Under the pieces are notes generated by a model that saw only the letters and a list, made by a program, of their open reading frames with translations, did no database searches and was not told where the DNA came from. From Anaeromyxobacter sp. (GTDB lineage: Bacteria; Myxococcota; Myxococcia; Myxococcales; Anaeromyxobacteraceae): a DNA stretch of 64,000 bases. Position numbers and translations under genes: made by a program. The stretch's first letter is position 1. Every line of letters starts with the position of its first letter. Shown here piece after piece: positions 5,081 to 44,912 of this stretch. The stretch spans positions 448,001-512,000 of the forward strand of contig JASGJN010000022.1 of NCBI GenBank assembly GCA_049840735.1. Reading direction: 5' to 3'.

Positions 5081-5286
5081 GGGGGCTCCGAGCACGATGT
5101 GGGCTGGCAGGCGACCGATGGTGCCCCGGAGACCGGCCTGGAGGCGACACTTTTCGGCTCGCCGGGGGGCTGCCCACCCCCGCCGTCCTTGACGGGGCCC
5201 GGGGCGCCGCGGCACAAACGGCGCCCCGTGGAACTGTCCTCGGCCCGCGAACCGTGGGTAGGATGGCTCTCAAGGAGGCACACCCG

Positions 5287-6286
5287 ATGCGCTGCACCGT
5301 CCTGGGCGCCGGTTCCTGGGGAACCGCGCTGGCCTCGCTCCTCGCCGGCAAGGGCTACACCGTCACCAGCTGGGACAAGGACGTCCCGGTGCTGGACGAG
5401 ATGGCCAAGCACCACCGCAACGAGCGGTACCTGCCCGGCGTGGTCCTCCCCGCCACCCTGCACGCCACCCCGGATCTGCAGAAGGCGCTGGAGGGGGCCG
5501 AGCTGCTGGTGCTGGCGGTCCCGTCCCACGCCGTGCGGCAGGTGGTGATCGAGGCCAAGCGGCACGTCCACGCCGGCACCCCCATCGTCTGCGTGGCCAA
5601 GGGGATCGAGCTGGAGTCGCTCATGACCATGAGCGAGGTGATCGAGGACGTGCTCCCGGTCCCCCTCCACCCCTACGTCGCCGTCCTGTCCGGCCCCTCC
5701 TTCGCGAAGGAGGTGGCCAAGGGGCTGCCCACCGCCGTCACCGTGGCGGCGCGCTGGGAGCGGATCGCCAAGCAGGTGCAGGACGCCTTCCACACCAAGA
5801 CCTTCCGCCCGTACACCTCCGGTGACGTGGTGGGCGTCGAGAATCGGCGGGTGCGTGAAGAACGTGGTGGCGATCGCGGCCGGTATCGCCGACGGGTTCG
5901 GCTTCGGGGCCAACGCCCTGGCCGCGCTCATCACCCGCGGCCTGGCCGAGATCACCCGGCTGGCGGTGCGCAAGGGCGCGAACCCCCTCACGCTCTCCGG
6001 CCTGTCCGGGCTGGGTGACCTGGTCCTGACCTGCTCCTCCGACCTGTCGCGCAACCGGACGGTCGGGCACGGCCTGGCCGCGGGCAAGACGGCCGAGCAG
6101 ATCCAGAAGGAGCTGGGTCAGGTGGCCGAGGGCATCCGCAACACGCGGTCCGCGCACGACCTGGCCGAGCGGCTGGGGGTGGAGATGCCCATCACCGACA
6201 CCATCTACCGGGTCCTCCACGAGGGCGCCTCGCCCCGGGAGGCGGTCACCGCGCTCATGATGCGGGAGACCAAGCCGGAGATTTGA
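5287..6286 (+). CDS. gpsA: NAD(P)H-dependent glycerol-3-phosphate dehydrogenase (frameshift ~5842)
   Basis: [37 protein letters not shown] and [12 protein letters not shown] in the next frame. Confidence 0.93.
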
Positions 6287-29280: not shown

Positions 29281-29973
29281 ATGTCCGACCGGATCCTGAT
29301 CATCGAGGACGACCCGTCCATCCTCAGGGGCCTGCAGCTCAACCTGGGCATGGAGGGCTACACCGTCCGCTCGGCCATGGACGGCGGAGACCGGCCTGCA
29401 GCTGGCGCGGACGGAGAAGCCCGACCTGGTGGTGGTGGACGTGATGCTGCCGCGCATGGGCGGGCTGGACGTGGTCCGCGAGATCCGCCGCGAGGACCCG
29501 CACCTGCCGGTGCTCATCCTCTCGGCCAAGGGGCAGGAGAGCGACAAGGTGGCGGGGCTGCAGCTGGGGGCCGACGACTACATGGTCAAGCCCTTCGGCC
29601 TCAAGGAGCTGCTGGCGCGGATCGAGGCGCTCCTGCGCCGCCACCGGGCGCGCGGCGAGGCGGGCCCCCCCGGAACGTGCGCAAGGTGGGCGCGGTGGAG
29701 GTGGACCTGGAGGCCCGCCGCGCCACCGCCGACGGCCGGACGCTGGACCTGACCAGCCGCGAGTTCGACCTGCTGGCCTTCTTCATCAGCCACCCGGACC
29801 GCGTCTACTCGCGCGAGCAGCTGATGGAGTCGGTCTGGGGCTCGCGCTACTTCGGCACCGCGCGCACCGTGGACAACTTCGTGGCCCGGCTGCGGGCCCA
29901 CATCGGCGACGACGCCGAGAGCCCGCGGCACCTGGAGACGGTGCGCGGGGTGGGCTACCGGTTCAATCCGTAG
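29281..29973 (+). CDS. OmpR-family response regulator (compensating frameshifts ~29386 and ~29670)
   Basis: ILIIEDD; VVDVMLP...GADDYMVKPF in an alternate frame; winged helix LTSREFDLL...ETVRGVGYRF. Confidence 0.88.
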   Translation: MSDRILIIEDDPSILRGLQLNLGMEGYTVRSAMDGGDRPAAGADGEARPGGGGRDAAAHGRAGRGPRDPPRGPAPAGAHPLGQGAGERQGGGAAAGGRRLHGQALRPQGAAGADRGAPAPPPGARRGGPPRNVRKVGAVEVDLEARRATADGRTLDLTSREFDLLAFFISHPDRVYSREQLMESVWGSRYFGTARTVDNFVARLRAHIGDDAESPRHLETVRGVGYRFNP

Positions 29974-31393
29974 CCAGCGCCGCCCGCACGGCCCGCAGCA
30001 CCGCCTCGTCCTCCCCCGGCAGCACCGTGCGCGGGTCGAGCACCACGCGGTCGTCCTCGATGCGCGCGATCACCGGCGGCTGCGCCTGGCGGAGGCGGGC
30101 CAGCTGCGCCTCGGCGCGGCCGGCCGGCAGGGTCACGAGCGAGGTGGGCAGGGTCACCTCCGGCAGCGAGCCGCCGCCCACCGCCGACCGCCCCGCTCGC
30201 ACCTCGCAGCCGCCGCCCAGCGCCTCGCACCAGGCCCGGGCGCGCGCGGCCAGCAGGTGCGGCTCGGTCGCCAGCGCCCGCCAGACCGGGATGCGGGTCT
30301 CGGCCTCGCCGCGCTCGTGCAGCGAGAGCGTGGCCATCAGGCCCGCCAGCGTGACCTTGTCGATGCGCAGCGCGCGCAGCAGCGGGTGGCGGCGCAGGCG
30401 CGCCAGGGCCTCGCGCCGGCCCACCAGCAGCCCGGCCTGCGGGCCGCCCAGCAGCTTGTCGCCGCTGAACGTGACCACGTCGGCGCCGGCCCGGACGCGC
30501 GCCTGCACGGTGGGCTCCTCGCCCAGGCCGAAGGGGCGGGTCTCGATGAGCGTGCCGGAGCCGACGTCGTCCACCACCCACAGCCCGCGCGCCCGCCCCA
30601 GCGCCACCAGCTCCTCCAGCGTCACGTCGTGCACGAACCCTGAGACGCGGAAGTTGGAGCGGTGGACCGAGAGCAGGGCCCGGGTGCGCGGCCCGACGGC
30701 CGCCTCGAAGTCGCGCGCGTAGGTGCGGTTGGTGGTGCCCACCTCCACCAGCGCGGCGCCGGACCGGAGCAGCACGTCGGGGATGCGGAAGCCGCCGCCG
30801 ATCTCCACCAGCTGGCCGCGCGAGACGATCACCTCCGGGCGCCCCTCGGCCGGCGCGGCCGCCGCCTCCCCCGGCCGCGCCTCGCCCAGCCCCGCCAGCG
30901 CCAGCAGCACCGCGGCGGCGCCGTTGTTCACCACCAGCGCGGCCTCGGCCCCGGTCAGCCGGCAGAGCGCGGCCTCGGCGTGGGCGTAGCGGTCGCCCCG
31001 CTCGCCGCTCTCCAGGTCGTACTCCAGGGTGAGGTAGCCCTCGGCCGCCTGCCGCATAGCGTCGATGGCCTCGGCGGCCAGCGGCGCACGCCCCAGGTTG
31101 GTATGTACGACCACGCCGGTGGCGTTCACCACCGGGCGAAGCGTGCCGCGCGCCACCTCCTCCAGGCGGCCCAGCACGGCGGCCTCGACGGCGTCCGGTG
31201 CCGGGCACGGGTGGCCCCCCAGGATGGCCTGCCGCTCGGTCTCGAGGGCCGTCCGGACGGCCTCCAGCACGGCGCCGCGGCCGAGGCGGAGCACCAGGCC
31301 GGCGCGGTCGGCGGCCTCCAGCAGGCGGTCGGTCCGGGGCAGCTTCCGGAGCTCCGACGACGCATCCGGGGCGGGTGGGCTGGGAGGGCTCAT
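29963..31393 (-). CDS. selA: L-seryl-tRNA(Sec) selenium transferase
   Basis: NATGVVVHTNLGRAPL, VEIGGGFRIPD, EVGTTNRT, FSGDKLLGGPQAG, RALRIDK. Confidence 0.95.
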   Translation of the reverse strand: MSPPSPPAPDASSELRKLPRTDRLLEAADRAGLVLRLGRGAVLEAVRTALETERQAILGGHPCPAPDAVEAAVLGRLEEVARGTLRPVVNATGVVVHTNLGRAPLAAEAIDAMRQAAEGYLTLEYDLESGERGDRYAHAEAALCRLTGAEAALVVNNGAAAVLLALAGLGEARPGEAAAAPAEGRPEVIVSRGQLVEIGGGFRIPDVLLRSGAALVEVGTTNRTYARDFEAAVGPRTRALLSVHRSNFRVSGFVHDVTLEELVALGRARGLWVVDDVGSGTLIETRPFGLGEEPTVQARVRAGADVVTFSGDKLLGGPQAGLLVGRREALARLRRHPLLRALRIDKVTLAGLMATLSLHERGEAETRIPVWRALATEPHLLAARARAWCEALGGGCEVRAGRSAVGGGSLPEVTLPTSLVTLPAGRAEAQLARLRQAQPPVIARIEDDRVVLDPRTVLPGEDEAVLRAVRAALATD

Positions 31394-31474
31394 GTCCGCA
31401 TGCTCAGGTCGCTTTTTGGCCTAGAAGATCGCTTGCTTGACCGGCGGCAGGATTGTAATCCTTCGCCCCACCCT

Positions 31475-33520
31475 ATGGCCCTGTTCCCCATGCCGAGCGC
31501 TGCCGCGGCGACTGACTACCTCTGGGCGATCATCCTCCTGCCCCTGGCGGGCGCCGTCGTGAACGGCCTGATCGGGCGCCGCATCGGCCGGTCCAACGTC
31601 ACGCTGATCGCCATCGGCGCCATGGTCGGGGCGCTGATCCTGTCGAGCATCGCGTTCTACCATGTGGCCTTCGGCCCGCGGGTGCCCTGGCTCAACTACG
31701 AGGGCGCCCAGTGGTTCAGCGGCACGGCGTGGGGGACCGGGCGGCTCCCCCTGGTGGGCTTCTCCTGGAGCCTGCTGGTCGATCGGCTCTCCGGGGTGAT
31801 GATCCTGGTCATCACCGGCGTCGGGACGCTCATCCACATCTACTCCGCGTCCTACATGTCCCATGAGGACGAGGCCGGGTACGCGCGCTACTTCGCCTAC
31901 CTGAACCTCTTCGTGGCGGCCATGCTGACGCTGGTGCTGGGCCACTCGCTGGTCCTCACGTTCGTGGGCTGGGAGGGCGTGGGGCTCTGCAGCTACCTGC
32001 TCATCGGCTTCTGGTTCACCGACCCGCAGAAGGCCTTCGCCGGCCGCAAGGCCTTCGTGGTCAACCGCATCGGCGACTTCGGCTTCCTGATCGGCGTCTT
32101 CTCGCTCCTGGCCATCTTCGGCACCGCCGACTACGTCGCGCTGGAGCAGGGCGCGCGCGCCATCACCGCCACCGCGCAGATCAGCGGCGGCGTGTTCGAC
32201 GGCTGGACCTACCAGCAGGCCATCACGCTGGCGCTGCTGGGGCTCTTCGTGGGCGCCGCCGGCAAGAGCGCCCAGCTGCCGCTCTACATCTGGCTGCCCG
32301 ACGCCATGGCCGGCCCGACGCCGGTCTCGGCCCTGATCCACGCCGCCACCATGGTCACCGCCGGCGTCTACCTGGTGGCCCGCAACGCCTACCTCTTCAC
32401 GCTGGCGCCGGCGGCCATGGCCACCGTCACCATCGTGGGCGCCGCCACCGCGCTCATCGCGGCGCTGATCGCCTTCGCCCAGAACGACATCAAGAAGGTG
32501 CTGGCCTACTCCACCGTCAGCCAGCTGGGCTTCATGTTCATCGGCGTGGGGGCCGGCGTCTGGTGGGCCGGCGTCCTGCACCTGGTCACGCACGCCTTCT
32601 TCAAGGCCTGCCTGTTCCTGGGCGCCGGCTCGGTGATGCACGGCATGGGGGACGAGACCGACATCCGCAAGATGGGCGGCCTGCTCCGGAAGATGCCGCA
32701 CACCGCGGCCACCTTCGGCGTCGCCACGCTGGCCATCACCGGGTTCGTCCCGCTCTCCGGCTTCTGGTCCAAGGACGCCATCCTGGGCGGCGCGCTGTTC
32801 AGCCATAACCCGGCCTGGCACCAGGTCGGGCTGGTCGCCTACGTGCTGGGCACCGTCGCCGCGCTGGGCACCGCCTTCTACATGACGCGCCTCTACGCGC
32901 TCGCGTTCTTCGGCAGGCCGCGCACGCACGCCGCCGAGCACGCGCACGAGTCGTCGCCGGTCATGACCGCGCCGCTCTGGATCCTGGCCATCCTCTCGGT
33001 GGTGGCGCTGGTGCTGGCGCTGCCCGGGCACGGGCCGCTCTCCGAGCTGTTCGCGAGGTACACCGAGCCGGTCTTCGGCGTGGCCACCGGGCGGCTGCGC
33101 TCGGTCGGTCACCTGCACGCGGGCGACCACCCGGCCTGGCCCTACCTCGCCGCCTGGGCCGTGGCGGCGGTGGGCACGGTCGCCGGCTACCTGATGTACG
33201 CCGGCGCCTGGACCCGCATCCCGGCCTGGTTCACCGCCACCTTCCGGCGCACCTACCGCTTCACCGCCGACAAGTTCCGGGTGGACGAGCTCTACGCCGT
33301 CCTGGTGGTGGAGCCCTTCCGCTTCATCGCCGGCGCGCTCTGGCGGGTGGTGGACGTGATCATCATCGACGGCATCGTGAACGGGATCGGGCGCGGCGCG
33401 CGCGCCATCGGCTCGATCTTCCGGGTGGTCCAGAACGGCGACCTGCAGCGCTACGCGGCCATCATGGCGCTGGCGGCGGCGGCCATCCTCTGGGCGGTCC
33501 TGGGCGCGGGGGGGCGCTGA
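31475..33520 (+). CDS. nuoL: NADH-quinone oxidoreductase subunit L
   Basis: GWEGVGLCSYLLIGFW, GKSAQLPL..WLPDAMAGPTPVSALIHAATMV, HAFFKA. Confidence 0.95.
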   Translation: MALFPMPSAAAATDYLWAIILLPLAGAVVNGLIGRRIGRSNVTLIAIGAMVGALILSSIAFYHVAFGPRVPWLNYEGAQWFSGTAWGTGRLPLVGFSWSLLVDRLSGVMILVITGVGTLIHIYSASYMSHEDEAGYARYFAYLNLFVAAMLTLVLGHSLVLTFVGWEGVGLCSYLLIGFWFTDPQKAFAGRKAFVVNRIGDFGFLIGVFSLLAIFGTADYVALEQGARAITATAQISGGVFDGWTYQQAITLALLGLFVGAAGKSAQLPLYIWLPDAMAGPTPVSALIHAATMVTAGVYLVARNAYLFTLAPAAMATVTIVGAATALIAALIAFAQNDIKKVLAYSTVSQLGFMFIGVGAGVWWAGVLHLVTHAFFKACLFLGAGSVMHGMGDETDIRKMGGLLRKMPHTAATFGVATLAITGFVPLSGFWSKDAILGGALFSHNPAWHQVGLVAYVLGTVAALGTAFYMTRLYALAFFGRPRTHAAEHAHESSPVMTAPLWILAILSVVALVLALPGHGPLSELFARYTEPVFGVATGRLRSVGHLHAGDHPAWPYLAAWAVAAVGTVAGYLMYAGAWTRIPAWFTATFRRTYRFTADKFRVDELYAVLVVEPFRFIAGALWRVVDVIIIDGIVNGIGRGARAIGSIFRVVQNGDLQRYAAIMALAAAAILWAVLGAGGR

Positions 33521-33522
33521 AC

Positions 33523-35099
33523 GTGAACCTGCTCACCATCGTCACCTTCGTCCCCCTGGCCGGCGCCCTGGCGCTGCTGATGCTCCCCCGCGACGAGGCG
33601 GGGCAGCACCGGGCCCTGGCCTTCGCGACCACGCTGGTCACCCTGGCGCTCTCGCTCGGGCTCTGGGCGGGCTTCACGCCCTCCGGCCCCGAGTTCCAGT
33701 TCGAGCAGCAGTCCGCCTGGATCCCCTCGCTGGGCATCAGCTACCACGTGGGCATCGACGGCGTGGCGCTGCTGCTCATCATGCTCACCACCGTGCTGGG
33801 GCCGGTGGTGGTGCTCTCGGCGTGGACCGCCATCCAGGACCGCGTGAAGGAGTTCCTGATCGCGCTGCTGGTCCTCGAGACGGCGATGATCGGCACCTTC
33901 GCCGCGCTCGACCTGGTGCTCTTCTACGTGTTCTGGGAGGCCATGCTGATCCCGATGTACCTGCTGATCGGGGTCTGGGGCTCGCAGAACCGGCTCTACG
34001 CGACGGTGAAGTTCTTCATCTACACCTTCGCGGCCAGCCTGCTGATGCTGGCGGCCATCCTCTACGTCTACTTCCACTCCGGCTCGCCGCAGACCTTCGA
34101 CTACCTGGCGGTGCGCGACCACCTGGACGTCACGCCGGCCGCGGCCGGCTGGCTCTTCCTGGCCTTCGGCGTGGCCTTCGCGGTCAAGGTGCCGATGTTC
34201 CCGCTGCACACCTGGCTGCCGGACGCGCACACCGAGGCGCCCACCGCCGGCTCGGTGATCCTGGCCGGCGTGCTCCTCAAGATGGGCACGTTCGGCTTCT
34301 TCCGCTACGCGATGCCGCTCTTCCCGGGCGCCGCGCTCGAGTACCGGCACGTCATCGCGGTGCTGGCGGTGATCGGCATCCTCTACGGCGCGCTCATGTC
34401 CTTCGTGCAGACCGACATGAAGCGGCTGGTGGCCTACTCCTCGGTCTCGCACCTCGGCTTCGTCATGCTGGGGCTGGCGGCGCTCTCCAGCGAGGCGTTG
34501 ACCGGGTCGGTCTACCAGATGCTCAACCACGGCGTCTCCACCGGCGCCCTGTTCCTCATCGTGGGGCTGCTCTACGAGCGGCGGCACACCCGCGAATCGC
34601 CCAGTACGGCGGCCTGGCCAAGCGCGTGCCGCTCATCGCGGCGGCCTTCATCCTGGTCACGCTCTCCTCCATCGGCCTGCCCGGCACCAACGGCTTCATC
34701 GGCGAGTTCCTGATCCTCTCCGGCACCTTCCTCTCGCGGCTGGGCAGCCCTGCCGCGCCGGTGCTGGCCACCCTGGCCGCGGTGGGCGTGATCCTGGGCG
34801 CGGTCTACATGCTCAAGCTGGTGGAGCGGGTCTTCCTCGGCCCCCTCCGCAACCCGGAGAACGCCGGGCTGCGCAATCTCTCGGTGCGCGAGGGGTTCGT
34901 CCTGGCGCCCATGATCGCGCTCATCCTGGTGATGGGGCTGGTGCCCCAGCCGTTCCTGGAGCGGGCCCGGCCGTCTGTGGACCAGCTGATGGCCCGCTTC
35001 CAGAAGGCGGGCAGGGCGGACCAGGTCGGCACGGTGCCCACCGCGCGCCCGGCGCCCTCCGCGCCCAGCGCCGCCCTCCCGCAGGTGGAGATCCGCTGA
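33523..35099 (+). CDS. nuoM: NADH-quinone oxidoreductase subunit M (frameshift ~34595)
   Basis: [45 protein letters not shown] in the next frame. Confidence 0.93.
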
Positions 35100-35100
35100 C

Positions 35101-36648
35101 ATGGACAAGTTCCCCGTCACCTCGTTCCTGGCGCTGCTGCCGGTCGCCATCCTCACGGCCGGCGCCCTGGTGCTGCTCATCAGCGAGGTGTTCCTGGTCT
35201 CCGGCAAGCGCGGGTACCAGGCGGTCCTGACCGTGGCCTTCTCGGCCGCCGCCGCCGTGGCCGCCATCGTGCTCCCGGCCAGCGGCCCCATCTTCGACGG
35301 CCAGGCCCGGGCCGACGCCTTCTCCGCCTTCGTGACCGTGATCGTCTGCGCCGGGCTGGGGCTGTCGGCGCTGGTCGGCGCCGGGTGGCTGGAGGCGCGC
35401 AACGCCGAGCGCGGCGAGTTCTACGCGCTCTCCGCCTTCGGCGCCGCCGGCATGGTGCTGCTGGGCATGGCCACCGACCTGCTGGTGGCCTTCATCTCCA
35501 TCGAGGTGATGAGCCTCTCCACCTACGCGCTGGCCGCCTACCTGCGCCGCGGCCGCCGCCCGTCGGAGGCCGCCTTCAAGTACCTGGTGCTGGGCGCGCT
35601 CTCCTCGGCCCTGCTCCTCTACGGCTCGGCGCTGCTCTACGGCGCCTGCGGCTCCACCCTCTTCTCCGACCTGCCCAAGGGGCACGGCAGCTCCATCTAC
35701 CTGGCCGGCCTGGCCCTGGTGGCGGCCGGGGTGGGGTTCAAGATCGCCGCCGTCCCGTTCCACGCCTGGACGCCCGACGTGTACGAGGGCGCCCCCACGC
35801 CGGTCACCGCCTTCATGGCCGCGGGCGTGAAGACGGCCGCCTTCGCGCTGATCCTGCGGGTGTTCCTGGCGGCGGAGACCGGCCCGATGGCCAGGCTGGC
35901 CGTCTTCGGCCCCATGGTCCTCTCGCCGCTGGCCGCGCTGACCATGATCTTCGGCAACCTGCTGGCGGTCCCGCAGCGGAGCGTGAAGCGGATGCTGGCC
36001 TACTCCTCCATCGCCCACGCCGGCTACCTGCTGGTGGGGGTGGTGGCCGCCGAGCAGCCTGGCGCCCGGGACCTGGCGGTGGGCGGCATCCTCTTCTACC
36101 TGGCGGTCTACGCCGCCTCGGCCATCGGCGCGTTCGCCGTGGTGGGGGCGCTGGAGCGGCGGGCCCGGCTCGACGCCGAGCCGCCCGAGGCGTGGGACCT
36201 GTCCCGCTTCGCCGGCCTCGCCCGCCGGCGGCCGGTCCTGGCCTTCGCCATGGCGGTCTTCCTGCTCTCCCTGGCCGGCATCCCGCCCACCGCGGGCTTC
36301 TTCGCCAAGCTGTACGTGTTCAAGGCGGCCATCGGCGCCGGGATGTACCCCCTGGCCATCCTCGGCCTCCTGACCAGCGCGCTGGGCGCGTACTACTACC
36401 TGCGCGTCGTGATCTACATGTACATGTTCCAGCCCGAGGGCAGCGCGGAGGAGTCGCTCGACGCGCCCTCGCTGACGGTGGCGCTGGCGGGCGCCGTGGC
36501 CGTGGTGGTGGTGCTGGGCTTCGTCGCCGAGCCGCTGGTCACGTGGGCGCAGGCCAGCGCGGCCAGCGCCTTCAACACGCCTGGCCCGGCGCTCTCGCAG
36601 GTGCCGGCCCCGCCGCCGCTCCTGCCGTCCGCCCAGGTGGTGCGGTAG
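35101..36648 (+). CDS. nuoN: NADH-quinone oxidoreductase subunit N
   Basis: [51 protein letters not shown]. Confidence 0.95.
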
Positions 36649-36693
36649 CCCCCGCGGCGCCCGCGGCGTCCAGGGGCCCGCGTGAGGCCCCTG

Positions 36694-36801
36694 TCCGTCG
36701 ACTTCGCGCCCGCCGTGCGGGCGCTACGCTCAGGACGAACGGATCGACAGCCCCGTTCGCCCTGAGCCCTTCGACAGCTCAGGGCAGGCGGAGTCGAAGG
36801 G
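36694..36801. repeat. REP-like palindromic element pair
   Basis: GTCGACTTCGCG-hairpin-CTACGCTCAGGACGAACGG plus inverted CCGTTCGCCCTGAGC...GAGTCGAAGGG. Confidence 0.85.
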
Positions 36802-36819
36802 CCGGCCGGCTGGGCGTCG

Positions 36820-37152
36820 TCAGTGCGTGCGCCCGGCCAGCTCGGTCGCGCCGAACGGCTTGGGCAAGAGCTCGGCCAGCGGGTGGCGCCGGCCCACGCC
36901 GGCCAGCAGCTCGGGGTACGGGCCGGTCAGGACCGTGCGCAGCCCGCTGCGCAGCGCGGCCTCCACCAGCAGCTCCGCGCCGGCCAGGTGCGCGTCGATC
37001 ACGCAGCAGCCCACGTTGCCCAGCGCCAGCTGGGCGATGGCCTCCTCCGCCGAGGAGGCGCAGGTGGTGGGGTGCCCGTCGAGGCGGAGGCCGATGGCCG
37101 TGGCCTCGCGAAAGGCCCGATCGCCATCCGCGATCAGGTAGGACGTCGGCAT
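36820..37152 (-). CDS. single-domain atypical response regulator receiver
   Basis: YLIADGD...VIDAHL...VLTG...LPKPF, 110 aa; no clear SD. Confidence 0.7.
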   Translation of the reverse strand: MPTSYLIADGDRAFREATAIGLRLDGHPTTCASSAEEAIAQLALGNVGCCVIDAHLAGAELLVEAALRSGLRTVLTGPYPELLAGVGRRHPLAELLPKPFGATELAGRTH

Positions 37153-37166
37153 TGCGCCGCCCGGGC

Positions 37167-37239
37167 AAAAAAAAAGAACTGCAAAGCGCAGCTGAAGTGG
37201 CGGGGGGGGACCTACCTCAACGGGCTGCTTTGCAGTTCT
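37167..37239 (-). terminator. intrinsic terminator formed by the sRNA hairpin
   Basis: 13-bp perfect basal stem ending in a run of 9 T on the - strand, exceptional in this GC-rich sequence. Confidence 0.8.
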
Positions 37240-37241
37240 GT
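37167..37241 (-). ncRNA. putative sigma54-dependent hairpin sRNA with C-rich loop (Pxr-like context)
   Basis: AGAACTGCAAAGC...TGAGGT-AGGT-C8-GCC-ACTTCA...GCTTTGCAGTTCT-T run; starts ~12 nt after the sigma54 -12 box. Confidence 0.72.
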
Positions 37242-37251
37242 CCGGATACAG

Positions 37252-37268
37252 AGCAAGCAGGGTGCCAG
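37252..37268 (-). promoter_or_regulatory. sigma54 (-24/-12) promoter
   Basis: CTGGCACCCTGCTTGCT matches TGGCAC-N5-TTGCW with exact GG-N10-GC spacing. Confidence 0.88.
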
Positions 37269-37386
37269 CCGGGTTCAATCGCCCTGATGCGGGCGCAGCC
37301 TCGAGTGATCACGCGGGGTTGACCGTGGGATCGGGCGGTGCCGGGCACCGCGCGGCCCGCCGCCGGGGCCGGCCCAGTTCACTCCT

Positions 37387-37428
37387 GCGTTTCAGATCTG
37401 AAAGGCGCATTTCACAACTGCAATGCGC
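37387..37428. promoter_or_regulatory. tandem palindromic upstream activator sites (putative bEBP enhancer)
   Basis: TTTCAGATCTGAAA at 37390 and TTTCACAACTGCAA at 37410, 20 bp apart and ~150-180 bp upstream of the predicted start. Confidence 0.65.
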
Positions 37429-37444
37429 CGTGTGGCAGGCGCGC

Positions 37445-38905
<1,461 letters not shown>

Positions 38906-38940
38906 GGAGGGGGAATCTTGTGCCCGTTCGGGTCCGGTTT

Positions 38941-41900
38941 TCAACTGCGCTCCGCGTCCTCGGTCGGCTCCAGCGGGAAGCGCAGGGTCATGACGGTGCC
39001 CGCGCCGGGCCGGGTCCGGACCGAGATCTCGCCGCCGTGGCCCTCCATGATGCGCTTCACCACCGCCAGGCCCAGGCCGGTGCCGCTGGCCTTGGTGGTG
39101 AAGAAGGGCTCGAAGATCCTTCTCCGGACCTCCTCCGGGATGCCGGCGCCGGTGTCCTCCAGCTCCACCGCGGCCCAGGGGCCCTCGCGCCGCAGGCGCA
39201 CGGTGAGGACGCCACCGCGCGGCATGGACTGGGCGGCGTTGACCGCCACGTTGACCACCGCCTGGCGCACCAGCCGCTCGTCCAGCGGCACCGGCGGCAG
39301 CTCCTCCTCCACCTCGCGCCGCACCTCCACGCCGCCGGCGTGCTGGACCAGCGCCGCCGCCACGGCGTCGTCCACCACCCGCTCCAGCTTCTCCGGGTGG
39401 AGGACCGGGGTGGACGGCCGGGCGAAGTCGAGCAGGTCGCCCACGATCCGGTTGAGCCGGTCGGCCTCCTCGCCCACGATGTCGAGCAGGAGCCGGGCGT
39501 CGCCCTCCGGCCGGAGCAGGCGGCGCAGCGAGCCGAGCGAGTTGAAGATCACGCCCAGCGGGTTGCGCACCTCGTGGGCCACCACCGCCGAGAGCTCGCC
39601 CAGGGCCGCCAGCCGCTCCTGCTGGATGAGCTGGCGCTGCGCCTGGGCCAGCTCGGCGTAGCTCTGGCGCAGGTCGTCGTAGAGGCGGGCGTTCTCCACC
39701 GCCACCGCCAGCTGGTTGGCCACCGCGGCGGCCCGCTCCACCTCGGCGCGCTGGAAGGCGCGCGGCCCGCGGCTCTCCACGATCATGGTGGAGCCGATGA
39801 GCCGGTCGCGGACCATCAGCGGCAGCACCAGGTAGGCGCGCCCGCCCACCTTCTCGCGCTGCTCCGGGAGGATGCGCGGGTCGCTGAGCACGTCCTCCAC
39901 CAGGATGGGCTCGCGCCGCTCCATGGCCAGCGCGCCCAGCGTGCCGGGCCGGTCCACCGGCGGCCGCGTGCCGATCAGCTCGCGCGGCCCGCCCCACACC
40001 GCGCGCACTTGCAGTCCCTTCCCGCCGTCCACCGCCAGCGCCAGCAGGGCGGTGGGGGCCTCGACGATGCGGGCCAGGTTGCGCACGCCCGCCTCCAGCA
40101 CCTGCTCGATGTCGAGCGTGGCCACCAGGGCGCGCCCCACCTCGTGCAGCAGCGACAGCTCCTCGGCGCGGCGGCGCGTCTCCTGGTAGAGGCGCGCGTT
40201 GTCCACCGCCACCGCCAGCTGGCTGGCGATGGCCACCGCCCGCGAGAGCTCGCCCGGTGAGTAGCCGCGCCCCGGGGCGGCCGAGACCAGCGCCACGCCC
40301 ACCGGGTGATCGCGCACGTGGAGGGGCACCGCCAGCGCCGGGCCGCCCGAGTCCGGGACCTGGCCGGTGACCGGGGCGCGCGCGTCCAGCGCCTCGCGCA
40401 GCACCGAGCGATCCGAGAGCGGCAGCGACGGCGGGCCCAGCGGCGGGCCGCGGTGGGCGGCGCGGCGCAGCTCCTGGCGGCGCGGGTCGTCGAGCAGGAT
40501 GGTGCAGCCGCCCGCGCCCAGGGTCTGCTTGAGGTGCTCGGCGCCGGCCAGCAGCACCTCGTCGAGGTCCAGCGAGGAGGAGACCACGCGGGCCACGTCG
40601 ATGACCGTGGCCAGCTCGGCCAGGCGCCCGCGGGCCTCGCTGTAGAGCCGGGCGTTCTCGATGCCCACCGCCAGCTCGCCGGCCAGCGCCGTGGCCAGGG
40701 CCCGCTCCTCCGGGGCGAAGGCGCGCCCGGGGGCGCCGGCCACCAGCAGCACGCCCACGGTGGCGGCGCGGGCCACCAGCGGCACGGCCAGCGCCGACAT
40801 GGGCGGCACGCCGGAGCGGCCGTAGAGGGCGCTGCGGGGATCGCGGGTCAGGTCGTCGGAGCCCACCGGCTCGCCGGTGCGGATGGCCTCCTCCACCAGG
40901 CCGTCGCGGGCCAGCGGGCGCCGGGCGCGGTCCGGCTCGAGGCGCGCGCCCACCGCCGCGGCGGTGTGCAGGGTCTGGCCGTCCTCGTCCACCAGCAGGA
41001 GCGCCGCCGAGGCGCAGCCCAGGGCGCTGGCGGCGGCGCGGCAGCCGTCGTCGAGCAGCGCGCGCACGTCGCCCGGGGCGTTGGCGAAGATGCGCTGGGT
41101 GATGCGGTGGACCGCCTCCAGGTCGGAGAGGCGGCGGCGCACGTCGGCGAAGAGCCGCGCGTTCTCCACCGCCACGCCCAGCTGGACGCCCAGCGCGGCC
41201 AGCAGCCGGACCTCGCCCTCGCCGACGGCGCGGCGATCGCGGCGGGCCACCACCAGCGCGCCCACCGCCGCCCGGCCCTTGGCCAGCAGCGGCACCGCCA
41301 CGCTGGCGCGCAGCCCCTCGCGCGCCACCACCTCGGTGGTGGTGGCGTCCAGCGCCGGGTCCCCCTCCACGGCCAGCACCGGCGCCAGCCGCTGCACCGC
41401 CTGCCCGGCCAGCCCGTCGCCCGGGGCCACCCGCTCCAGCCGGCGCAGCGTGTTCACGTCCAGGCCGGCCGCGGCCACCAGCTTGAGCGCGTCGCCCTCG
41501 CGCACGAAGGCGGCGCCGGCCTGCGCCTCCAGCGTGGCGCAGACCCGGCGCAGCGCGCTGTCGAGCAGCAGCACCGGGTCGAGCTGCGCGCTGGCCATGG
41601 AGACGTCGTTGAGCAGCGTCAGCTCGGCCACGCGCCGGCGCAGGTCGGTCAGCAGCGTGTTGGACTCGATGGCGCTGGCGAAGTGGCCGGCCGCGGCGCC
41701 CAGCAGGTCGAGCCGGGCCCGCGCCTCCTCCGCCGGCGCGGCGAAGGCCGCCGCCATCACGCCCACGGTGCGGGAGCGGGCCACCAGCGGCACCCAGGCC
41801 GTGGCCGGCCAGTCCCCCAGCGGCGCCTCCCCGGCGGCCGGCTCCCCGGCGCTGACGACGCGCGCCAGCCGCTCCTCCGCCACCAGCGCCAGCTCCGAGC

Positions 41901-42981
41901 CGGCCGGCACCTCGGGCGGCGGGACCGCGGGGTCGGCCGGGTGCGCCGGGTGGCGCCGGAGCAGCCGGCCGCTGGCCTCGTCCAGCGCGTAGACCGCCAG
42001 CGCGGCGGCGCCGGAGGCGCGGCGCAGCTCCTCCTCGGCCCGCTGGAAGAAGGCCTCCAGGTCGCTCACCTCGCCCAGCAGCTCGGCGATGCGGTTGAGG
42101 GCGGCCAGGTCGGCGTTGTGGCGGGAGAGCTCGGCGATGGTCCGGGCCGCGTCCAGCGCCGCCGCCACCTGCGCGCCGAAGAGCCGGCCGGCCGGGACGT
42201 CCTCGGCGCGCAGCCAGTCGCCGATCAGCACCAGGTAGTGGCGCACGCCGGTCCGCTCGTCGAGCCGGATGGCCACCGCGCGGGAGAGGCCGTGCGAGGC
42301 GGCCAGCGAGCGGGTGACCTCGGCGTGGATGAGCGGCACGAAGGCGGCCGCCTCGGACGCCCAGTCGTCGGAGAAGGCCACGCCCTCGTCCCAGGCGGTG
42401 CGGGCGAAGCCGGTCCAGTGGCCGGTGAACCCCTCCACGTCCTGGCCCAGCTGGCCGCGGAAGGCCTCCTCCAGCACGGTGGGCAGGCCGGTCCAGACCA
42501 CCCGCACGCCCTCCGGCATGGCCCGCAGCAGCATGGGGGTGATGCCGAGCGGCGGCAGCGCCTCGCGCAGGTGCGCGAAGAGGTCGGCCTCGCTCCGCTC
42601 GCCCTGGATGGCCGCGCCCAGCGCCGCCAGCGCCTCCAGCCGCGGACGCCGCGCCGCCTGGGCGGTGACGTCGCGCAGCCCCACCACCACGTCGCCGCCC
42701 TCCCGCTCCACGCGGAGCTCGACGGTGACGCGGGCGCCGTCCGGCCGGAGCAGCACCGCCTCGTACTCGCTCGGCACCGGCTCGCCGCGCAGCCGCCGCT
42801 CGTGGCGCTCGGCCACGCGCCCGCGGTCCTCCGGCGCGAACAGGTCGGCGAAGGGGAGCCCCAGCAGCGCCGGCAGCGGCCGGCCGGCCAGCGCGGCCGC
42901 GCCCTCGCTGGCCATGGCGATGCGCCGCTCGCGCAGCATGACCGTGCCGGTCTGGTGGCGCTCGCGGGCCGGGGCGGTCAC
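38941..42981 (-). CDS. cytoplasmic PAS + multi-GAF sensor histidine kinase
   Basis: PAS, about six GAF-like repeats ending in ENARL-type linkers, [25 protein letters not shown]. Confidence 0.9.
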
Positions 42982-44912
42982 GGGCGGCCCTCCCCGCGCA
43001 GCACCCGGCGCTCGCCCACCCGCAGCGTGACCTTCTCGCGATCGAAGTACTCGGCCAGCGGGATGACGTGCTTGCGGGTGGCGCCCACCAGCTCCTTGAA
43101 CTGCTGGGTGGTGATCTCGCGGTGCTCGCGCAGCCAGGCCACCAGGCGCGCCTGCAGCCCGGCCACGGCGGCGGCGTCGAACCAGAGCTCGCTCGAGGCC
43201 CGCACCACGCGCCCCTCGGCCAGCAGCAGCTTCAGCACCGCGGTCACGTCGCCGGCCGGGGCCCCGGCGGCGGCGGGCAGCTCGGCGAGCCAGGGGGGCG
43301 TGAGGCCGCCCTCCGCCAGCAGCGCCGCCACCCGCTCGCGGAGCGCGCCGCCGCTGCCGCCGGCGGCGGCCCTGTGCGCGGCGGCGCGGACCTGCTCGCC
43401 CTCCAGCACCAGCGCCCCGCGCTCCGCCGCGGCCTGCAGCAGCCGCTGGAAGAGGCGCGGCTCGACCACCGGCGGCAGCCGGCCCCGCAGCGCCTCGCGC
43501 CCGGCGCCCGCGGCCAGCGGCTGCGCCGCGTGGAAGGCGGCCACCGCCTCCTCCAGCCGCCGCGAGAGCTCGCGGGCCACCGCCCCGGCCACCCAGGCGC
43601 GCCGCTCCCGGTCGAAGAGCAGCGCCTCGCCGCGGGCGCCCAGCCGCTCCAGCGCGCCCTGCGCCGCGCGCGCGGAGAGGGCGGTCCGGCCAAGCAGCGC
43701 CGGCAGGTCCAGCCCCGCCGGCCCCGCCGCCTCCAGCACCGCCCTCACCCGCGCCTCCGGGTCACCTGCCCCCAGCGCGGAGAGCCCCGCCAGCGCCTCC
43801 GGCCGGCCGCGCCGCCGCCGCCGGGCCGCCACGCCCAGCACCCGGCCGCCGGCCAGCGTGGCGCCGCGCCCCTCCAGCGCCGCGAAGCCGCGCAGCACGA
43901 AGCGCTGCCCGGGGAGCGCCGCGGTCGGGGCGGCCAGCCGGAGCTGCGCCGGGGCGGTGGCGCCCGGCGCCAGCTCGCCGCGGTCGAGCAGCCCCACCGT
44001 GGCCTGCACCTGCGCGGTCCCCACGTGCAGCAGCAGCCGGGCGCGGTGGCGCAGCGGGCGGGGCGCGGCCGCCAGCAGCGCCAGCTCCACGTCCAGCACG
44101 CTCGAGGCGGGCACCACGCCGGCCCCGGCCAGCGCCTGCCCGCGGCGCACCTGGGCCGGCTCGACGCCGGGCAGGTTCACCGCCGTCCGCTGGCCGGCGC
44201 GGGCGCGCTCCACCGGCTGCCCGTGCACCTGGACCGAGCGCACCCGGAGCGGCTCGCGTCCGGGCGGGAGCAGGGCCAGCGCGTCCTCGGGCGCGATGGC
44301 CCCGGAGAGCAGCGTACCGGTGACCACCGTTCCGAAGCCCTTGAGCGAGAAGGCGCGGTCGATGGGGAGGAAGACCGGGCCGTCGGCCGGGCGCGGGGGG
44401 ACCGTAGCCGCCAGCGCGCCCAGGGCCTCGCGGAGCGCGTCCAGGCCGGCGCCGGTGCGGGCCGAGACCGGCACCACCGGGGCGTCCTCGAGGAAGGTGC
44501 CCGCCACCGCGGCGCGCAGCTCCTGCTCCAGCAGCGGCAGCCAGCCGGCGCCGAGGCCGGGCAGGAGGTCCGCCTTGGTCACCACCAGGAGCCCGCGCGG
44601 TACGCCCAGCAGCCGGCACACGTCGAGGTGCTCGCGGGTCTGGGGCATCACCCCCTCGTCCGCCGCCACCACCAGCATCACCAGGTCGATGCCGCCGGCG
44701 CCGGCCACCATGGCGCGCACGAAGCGCTCGTGGCCGGGGACGTCCACCACGCCCAGGGGCTCCAGCCCGGGCAGGGCCAGGTGCGCGAAGCCCAGCTCGA
44801 TGGTGATGCCGCGCCGCTTCTCCTCCTCGAGCCGGTCGGTGTCGATCCCGGTGAGCGCCCGGACGAGCGCCGTCTTGCCGTGATCGACGTGGCCGGCGGT
44901 GCCGAGGATCAT
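42978..44912 (-). CDS. selB: selenocysteine-specific elongation factor
   Basis: [24 protein letters not shown]-terminal winged helix [13 protein letters not shown]. Confidence 0.95.

Follow-up and report, generated by a model that had tools for sequence, protein, structure and literature searches.

The small RNA (sRNA) Pxr of Myxococcus is the textbook example of a recently evolved gatekeeper of bacterial multicellularity. Three publications portray it as an RNA of three stem-loops that arose recently in the Cystobacterineae (PMC5568312, PMC8538405, PMC11928866). According to the accessible sections of the genetic studies, control runs from a kinase (pxrK) through an activator (pxrR) to the RNA (PMC5684412, PMC10217877), and mutations in the loop of the first stem-loop, SL1, abolish Pxr function but not its accumulation (PMC5684412). 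A proximity-ligation preprint, likewise available in part, maps Pxr contacts near Shine-Dalgarno (SD) sequences (bioRxiv 10.1101/2025.09.11.675593). We analysed a 64,000-nucleotide (nt) stretch of an Anaeromyxobacter sp. genome (contig JASGJN010000022.1), called the window in the following. Its study region at 37167-42981 carries a sensor kinase gene, a sigma-54 activator gene, two enhancer palindromes, a promoter and a predicted hairpin RNA with a C-rich loop, all module parts on the minus strand. This locus holds a real, homologous and structurally distinct variant of Pxr, which lies outside the Rfam family RF01812 as defined. The old suborder formally includes the family of Anaeromyxobacter. 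No description of the one-hairpin form was found in the literature searched for Pxr together with Anaeromyxobacter; Chen 2014, Yu 2010, Yu 2016 and Whitworth and Swain 2020 lie outside that coverage and may mention it. The word Anaeromyxobacter had no occurrences in the Pxr structure and processing papers searched for it.

Homology to Pxr is settled by reciprocal best hits, by synteny and by the matches of an independent model on true Pxr genes. The window activator found its best match in G062, a genome with an over-cut-off Pxr, in the gene directly upstream of that Pxr (59% identity). The reciprocal best hit scored 528 bits versus 362 for the next gene, and that of the kinase 323 versus 144 bits. 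The order hsp33, phosphoribosyltransferase, selB, kinase, activator, C-loop RNA and convergent nuoN is common to the Rfam-positive loci L061-L063 and L079. Model R1 was built from 36 single-hairpin sequences with no member of family f6 (Myxococcaceae). It matched 7 of 21 f6 genomes, in five cases on the Rfam over-cut-off Pxr (E 6e-5 to 6e-4). The window RNA shares with Pxr an SL1 with bulged stem and 8-nt C-rich loop, the position after pxrK-pxrR (nla19) orthologues and before a NADH dehydrogenase gene and, at the sequence level, a sigma-54 promoter with upstream enhancer. The search with RF01812 gave no match at the gathering cut-off of 80 bits. A local match of 15.3 bits, at chance level taken alone (E 5.5), placed model positions 8-38 (SL1) on 37221-37191, where stem, bulge and loop size agree and all pairs are standard. 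None of the 44 f1 genomes had an RF01812 match over the cut-off. The predicted fold contains neither the short second stem-loop SL2 nor SL3 with its conserved 8-bp stem needed for accumulation, and U9 follows directly after the first hairpin. Since it falls below the cut-off and is devoid of SL2 and SL3, the RNA is a variant of Pxr and not a member of RF01812. A first-pass annotation, made from the letters of the window alone, had proposed a single-hairpin Pxr-like sRNA. This link held for the reciprocal best hits of activator and kinase, for synteny and for promoter, hairpin and C loop, which are conserved and carry compensatory changes, and the RNA indeed keeps SL1 without SL2 and SL3. The Rfam model it pointed to did not recover the RNA, with 15 of 80 bits. 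The features of the locus are as follows:

42978..44912, minus strand: selB, upstream synteny marker (Pfam scan and gene-order comparison)
38941..42981, minus strand: PxrK/SpdS-type sensor kinase (Pfam: weak PAS, five GAF, HisKA, HATPase; reciprocal best hit)
37445..38905, minus strand: PxrR/Nla19-type sigma-54 activator (Pfam: REC, AAA+, HTH_8; reciprocal best hit)
37410..37423, no strand assigned: distal enhancer palindrome, predicted PxrR site (consensus TT(T/G)CA-N4-TG(A/C)AA)
37390..37403, no strand assigned: proximal enhancer palindrome, 20 bp from the distal one (same consensus)
37252..37268, minus strand: sigma-54 -24/-12 promoter (sequence; conserved in homologues; predicted +1 at 37241)
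37167..37241, minus strand: predicted 75-nt single-hairpin Pxr-family sRNA (fold, covariation, models)
37191..37221, minus strand: apical hairpin corresponding to SL1 of Pxr, with 8 bp and 3 bp on either side of a bulge (RF01812 alignment; C8 loop 37209-37202)
36820..37152, minus strand: single-domain receiver open reading frame (ORF), 110 amino acids (aa) (alignment; PF00072 weak here, E 0.008)
35101..36648, plus strand: nuoN, convergent, synteny marker common to the Myxococcus pxr locus (Pfam scan and gene order)

The protein-coding and promoter parts named in the first-pass annotation were all recovered. They comprise the PAS/multi-GAF kinase (1346 aa), the NtrC-type activator with its GAFTGA motif (nt 38167), the two palindromes 20 bp apart (37403-37390 and 37423-37410) and the sigma-54 box (37268-37252). 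The activator likely starts at the in-frame ATG at 38905, giving 486 aa. The kinase start overlaps the selB stop; the selenocysteine machinery and the sensor may therefore be co-transcribed. The genome encodes RpoN. At 94% completeness it yielded an RNase III and no match for Hfq, and no sigma-70 promoter was found in 36600-37500. The genes selA and selB flank nuoLMN and the pxr locus (window 29963-44912). GC-rich inverted repeats at 36740-36810, between the receiver ORF and the convergent nuoN, are likely a REP-like or terminator element.

The hairpin (37239-37175) had a predicted folding energy of -35.6 kcal/mol (z = -6.2), and none of 200 shuffled sequences was equally stable. Its lower stem of 15 bp, 37239-37224 with 37189-37175, doubles as the predicted intrinsic terminator and is followed by U9 (T9). 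The C8 loop is fully unpaired in the predicted fold, and no alternative fold appeared in the ensemble. An RNA of about 75 nt with this shape had been proposed before; hairpin, loop and terminator were retrieved, and the transcript itself stays a prediction. The palindrome pair is unique in the 6.67-Mb genome, which holds five perfect single sites and 34 with at most one mismatch. Strict sigma-54 boxes (8 genome-wide) and runs of at least eight C (64) occur together at one place only. Apparent single-base frameshifts relative to homologues in nuoM (33523-35099), a response regulator gene (29281-29973) and a dehydrogenase-like gene (5254-6286) are probably assembly errors, so that exact homopolymer lengths could be off; yet C8 is also present in close relatives.

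Covariation was assessed in the 36 single-hairpin sequences, in all of which the U-run stands directly after the hairpin. Paired cells amounted to 95.9%, and 13 of 25 pairs had changed on both sides. Cells with both-side changes numbered 55 against 12 in shuffled alignments, a test that kinship among the sequences inflates, and at most 10 in slid controls, which are less affected. In the lower stem of the window copy itself, one G-C pair is swapped to C-G, and among 48 divergent sequences it is the loop Cs that stay invariant. RNAalifold recovered eight lower-stem pairs and no more on a divergent MAFFT alignment (A3). Pair counts from alignment A4 were not used, as it had been fitted to the model and includes reverse-strand rows. 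Genomes of the same genus carry the same short hairpin, as do the named Anaeromyxobacter records L110, L136 and L153, whose activators are 76-79% identical to that of the window where covered. The retention of promoter, hairpin and C loop in relatives thus agrees with what had been anticipated from the sequence. Contigs of four soil RNA runs from one study, mapped at 85% likeness, reached depths of 127, 7, 14 and 34 in the hairpin bin and of 0-0.7 and 0.6-9 in the bins beside it. This depth is not counted as evidence, since the contigs stem from relatives and not from this strain, conserved sequence draws more contigs, and the material may include DNA and carries no strand information. In the search for expression, no RNA run contained half of the query words.

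Enhancers were called as TT(T/G)CA-N4-TG(A/C)AA, one mismatch being allowed, where they lay no more than 330 nt from the activator stop, without deduplication of loci by genome. Of the loci with the RNA, 30 of 33 in f1, 20 of 20 in f6 and all 10 others had an enhancer; of the loci without it, none did (0/14 f1, 0/16 other). The palindrome stood no more than 300 nt upstream of all 32 model matches examined, most of them away from pxrR, and 29 had a strict sigma-54 box; among weaker model matches, 10 of 11 had both. The models themselves contain no enhancer or promoter. The background in the window's own genome is the above 34 sites in 6.67 Mb. Where the RNA is absent from the pxrR locus, it has usually moved together with enhancer and promoter. 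An enhancer-only search of five model-negative f1 genomes returned nine sites. Three were paired (one each in G100, G112 and G130), and each of these has a sigma-54 box and a divergent hairpin with a C loop behind it. The available text of the Pxr papers names an 'enhancer binding region' without giving its sequence.

These results bear on the explanation that the hairpin does no more than end the selB-kinase-activator operon, or that it resembles Pxr SL1 through convergence. The RNA does lie downstream of the operon, its terminator is strong and its RF01812 score is at chance (E 5.5). Nevertheless, it possesses its own promoter and enhancer, an invariant loop and an orthologous position. The cassette relocates and duplicates, and at the locus enhancer, promoter and hairpin were lost jointly and cleanly. 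This explanation is already largely refuted, and we regard it as very improbable.

The distribution of the RNA was surveyed in 151 genomes of the order (families f1-f9) with model R2 at E 0.001 or better. R2 was built from 48 sequences of this same sample, which makes its counts partly circular. As RNAalifold recovered few pairs on A3, it is mostly a sequence model, and it misses the training sequence G161 under strict filters. R2 matched 107 of the 151, spread over 8 of the 9 families: f1 31/43 plus the window's own genome, f2 1/1, f3 6/9, f4 10/13, f5 4/4, f6 37/44, f7 0/1, f8 16/34 and f9 1/1. RF01812 passes 31/151, all from f6, and would need rebuilding. The activator tally for f6 stood at 107/125, a count that includes the unpublished genome G273 and on which no other result depends. 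Among 116 genomes sampled outside the order, R1 matched one, G161 (family f21), with a 66% identical activator, enhancer pair, promoter and single hairpin. In a second f21 genome the contig breaks off after enhancer, promoter and the first part of the hairpin. Searches of 17 genomes from another class and of five further genomes did not find the RNA; their sensitivity is limited. The sole R2 match in the 116 genomes outside the order, G176 (L325), has the same hairpin outline, a C8 loop and T7, and no sigma-54 box or enhancer; it may be a distant homologue or due to chance. Pattern matches in non-myxobacterial records were rejected: on rescoring, all ten such named records failed to beat E 0.001, and inspection of the best one (L128) revealed no cassette.

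One-hairpin forms occur in f1, f2, f4, f5, f21 and part of f3, two-hairpin forms in f6, f8, f9, most of f3 and part of f4. Several loci depart from these forms. In Vulgatibacter-like and some other genomes (L166:150-304, L270, L273, L078, L335) the terminator hairpin has its own C6-C10 loop, so that the RNA exposes two C loops. A paralogous f1 subfamily (L094, L243, L246, L247, L295, L299, L308, L326) with a different apical loop lies away from pxrR and has kept the enhancer; G014, G036 and G135 carry both this and the main RNA type. Tandem arrays were observed in an f5 genome (L093:2149-2707, three one-hairpin copies) and in the named Cystobacter and Archangium records L142 and L169 (seven and five long copies), three having been described for strain Cbm 6. 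The kinase is missing beside the activator while the RNA is kept in L066, L068, L070, L072 and L088, and in L068 RNA and activator have opposite orientations. L071 and L073-L076 (f6 genera g34 and g37) have a two-hairpin RNA behind selB, where the activator was not found. A sigma-70-like hexamer pair 17 nt apart replaces the sigma-54 box in these loci, an apparent promoter switch after regulator loss.

Behind the terminator, 15 nt after the U-tract, begins the receiver ORF (37152-36820), which was absent from the first-pass annotation. In the alignment it keeps the acidic pocket, the phospho-acceptor Asp, the Thr and the Lys; PF00072 was over the cut-off in three of five homologues scanned and weak in the window copy. 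A receiver ORF lies within 600 nt of the RNA at 21 of 25 f1 loci (two more were found separately), 3 of 6 f3 and 5 of 12 f4 loci. This proximity, along with weak U-tracts in some members, would suit a cis-acting leader or attenuator which sets the expression of the receiver gene as the real output of the promoter. We consider this quite unlikely, as no receiver ORF accompanies the 12 relocated or paralogous f1 copies or the loci of f5 (0/4), f6 (0/14), f8 (0/14) and f21 (0/1), in a tally with seven loci unparsed, tandem copies each have their own promoter, and the ensemble lacks an alternative fold. Given its presence in f1, f3 and f4 and its absence from f5, f6, f8 and the relocated f1 copies, the receiver gene appears to be an old optional passenger.

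We consider it probable that the window locus carries, in compact form, Anaeromyxobacter's orthologue of the pxrK-pxrR-pxr circuit, which would act in the following steps. Judging from its domains and from Myxococcus genetics, the GAF kinase would phosphorylate the activator, which would bind the two palindromes, the sole such enhancer pair in the genome, and open the sigma-54 promoter. The product would be a 75-nt RNA with one long hairpin, the base of which also serves as terminator. By analogy with Pxr, the invariant single-stranded C loop would act in trans; most likely it would pair with G-rich ribosome-binding regions and damp translation without Hfq. Action through the loop is suggested because SL1 loop mutations abolish function but not accumulation, and action on ribosome-binding regions because Pxr contacts map near SD sequences. 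Read-through may yield the small receiver protein, which, more speculatively, might drain kinase phosphate as feedback.

Several observations weigh against this reading. The 75-nt transcript is predicted, and its start site rests on promoter geometry. Targets were sought by G-run counts and duplex ranking in crude gene calls (4891 genes, 2590 with ATG). Runs of at least six G were not enriched at -20 to -4 (15 genes versus 14 and 19 in the upstream windows, n=2590). The G-rich ribosome-binding sites of nuoM, dnaK (2/27) and nuoF (4/30) were not conserved, and these three genes were dropped as targets. No cassette was found in G088 and G091, though both have kept the activator. Related genomes are not independent, and enhancer loci were counted without deduplication by genome. 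Several f1 members combine a weak U-tract with a receiver ORF 10-20 nt behind the stem, which fits a leader. The pairing of the C loop with G-rich SD sequences, already put forward in the first-pass annotation, gains backing from the Myxococcus Pxr contacts in the available part of the preprint, but not from the target search, which among the 2590 ATG genes of these crude calls found neither an enriched nor a conserved target.

Instead of pairing with mRNAs, the RNA might bind a protein with affinity for poly(C) or for duplexes, or sponge another RNA. CrcZ-type RNAs, which are driven by sigma-54 and an activator, act by such titration. This function would be in keeping with the lack of a conserved mRNA target and with the poor pairing of a pure C loop with GGAGG. 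The occurrence of several copies, tandem or dispersed (L093 has three, G053 up to six matches), suits a dosage mechanism. However, most forms have a single loop, and titrating RNAs usually repeat their motif. The available text of PMC5684412 leaves chaperone binding open, whereas the accessible part of the preprint places Pxr-mRNA contacts near the SD sequence (bioRxiv 10.1101/2025.09.11.675593). We judge protein binding or sponging to be unlikely and retain the Pxr-type circuit acting on mRNAs as the preferred interpretation.

The comparison also bears on Myxococcus Pxr. The sigma-54 box of pxr predicts a start 13 nt upstream of the annotated 108-nt gene, the boundary of which agrees with the primer table in PMC5568312. 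Folded from the predicted +1, the 13-nt leader paired with the region drawn as SL2 in all 18 distinct Rfam-positive sequences, and the same long-stem fold was obtained in 87 of 90 pattern matches with an SL3-like terminator. SL2 formed from the predicted +1 in 0/18 and 0/90, and from the annotated start (+14) in 17/18 and 24/90. An earlier count of 88/88 long stems was dropped since its set had been preselected for stems, and the count was redone on these differently chosen sets. A MAFFT alignment of 50 long-form sequences, drawn from a set selected for stems, had both-side changes in 10 of 11 leader pairs, and the long-stem pairs were 80.5% paired versus 64.9% for the three SL2 pairs. Native leader-arm duplexes averaged -12.5 kcal/mol versus -9.2 for swapped divergent pairs, with 1509 of 6332 swaps doing equally well. 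The first Pxr hairpin ends at a median of 68 nt from +1 (selected set), the size of the window hairpin. The long hairpin would form the conserved core of the family, and Myxococcus Pxr would be the same hairpin plus a separate terminator, SL3. According to the available part of PMC5568312, foreign pxr alleles were fused behind the M. xanthus leader in complementation tests. Pairing with a Myxococcus-type leader was -6.4 and -6.6 for the two failed alleles, -9.8 for the working allele and -12.7 for the native one; this comparison covers three alleles and also fits the authors' own SL2 explanation (PMC5568312).

A more far-reaching interpretation is possible, although we hold it with considerable doubt. 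The one-hairpin RNA would be the ancestral Pxr, older than fruiting, and a 'born mature' Pxr-S: the active short form of Myxococcus would be the same ~68-nt hairpin, from the predicted +1 to the stem base, cut from SL3. SL2 would not exist in the primary transcript, and the published alleles would have failed because they pair poorly with the M. xanthus leader that the constructs retained. The activator tree resolved families mostly with good support and nested f6 among one-hairpin families (support 79-89); it could not be rooted, with support 0 at the base. Counted by eye, four gains versus five steps for the alternative weakly favour an ancestral short form. The earlier label 'ancestral' is weakly favoured at most, the activator tree having no reliable root. 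Anaeromyxobacter and Vulgatibacter are listed as non-fruiting and placed at the root of the order in the available text of PMC13689315, and judging by its genus, the host of the window, a soil bacterium, is presumably non-fruiting.

The occurrence of the whole circuit in non-fruiting Anaeromyxobacter, in Vulgatibacter-like genomes and in a family outside the order points to an older, non-developmental job that was later co-opted. This suggests an RNA switch more widespread than fruiting bodies and a published Pxr structure in need of revision. Predictions for M. xanthus follow, namely a consensus for the PxrR site, a transcript start moved 13 nt upstream, a long stem replacing SL2 and a candidate identity for Pxr-S.

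C-loop sRNAs directed against SD sequences include RNAIII and RsaE of Staphylococcus and CjNC1/CjNC4 of Campylobacter, of which the CjNC RNAs are tied to sigma-factor cascades. The window RNA resembles them in an unpaired C-rich loop, proposed to act on G-rich ribosome-binding regions independently of Hfq, but regulators and architecture differ and no homology is claimed. The succession of two-component system, enhancer, sigma-54 promoter and small RNA is found again in CrcZ (CbrAB), GlmY (GlrK/GlrR) and Qrr (LuxO); the RNAs are unrelated, and those depend on or titrate Hfq or RapZ. Compared with Pxr of M. xanthus, the window RNA is shorter (75 nt versus about 121 nt from the predicted +1), is devoid of SL2 and SL3, uses its lower stem as terminator and stays below the Rfam cut-off. 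Its loop is C8 closed by U-G, that of Pxr UC7 closed by U-A. The downstream gene encodes a receiver in the window and the GNAT protein PxrA in Myxococcus, the window kinase has more GAF domains, and the host genus is non-fruiting. Both systems have no Hfq found, and they share an orthologous kinase and activator, the gene order up to nuoN, an enhancer palindrome, a sigma-54 promoter at equal distance from the loop (39 nt) and an SL1 with bulge and 8-nt C-rich loop.

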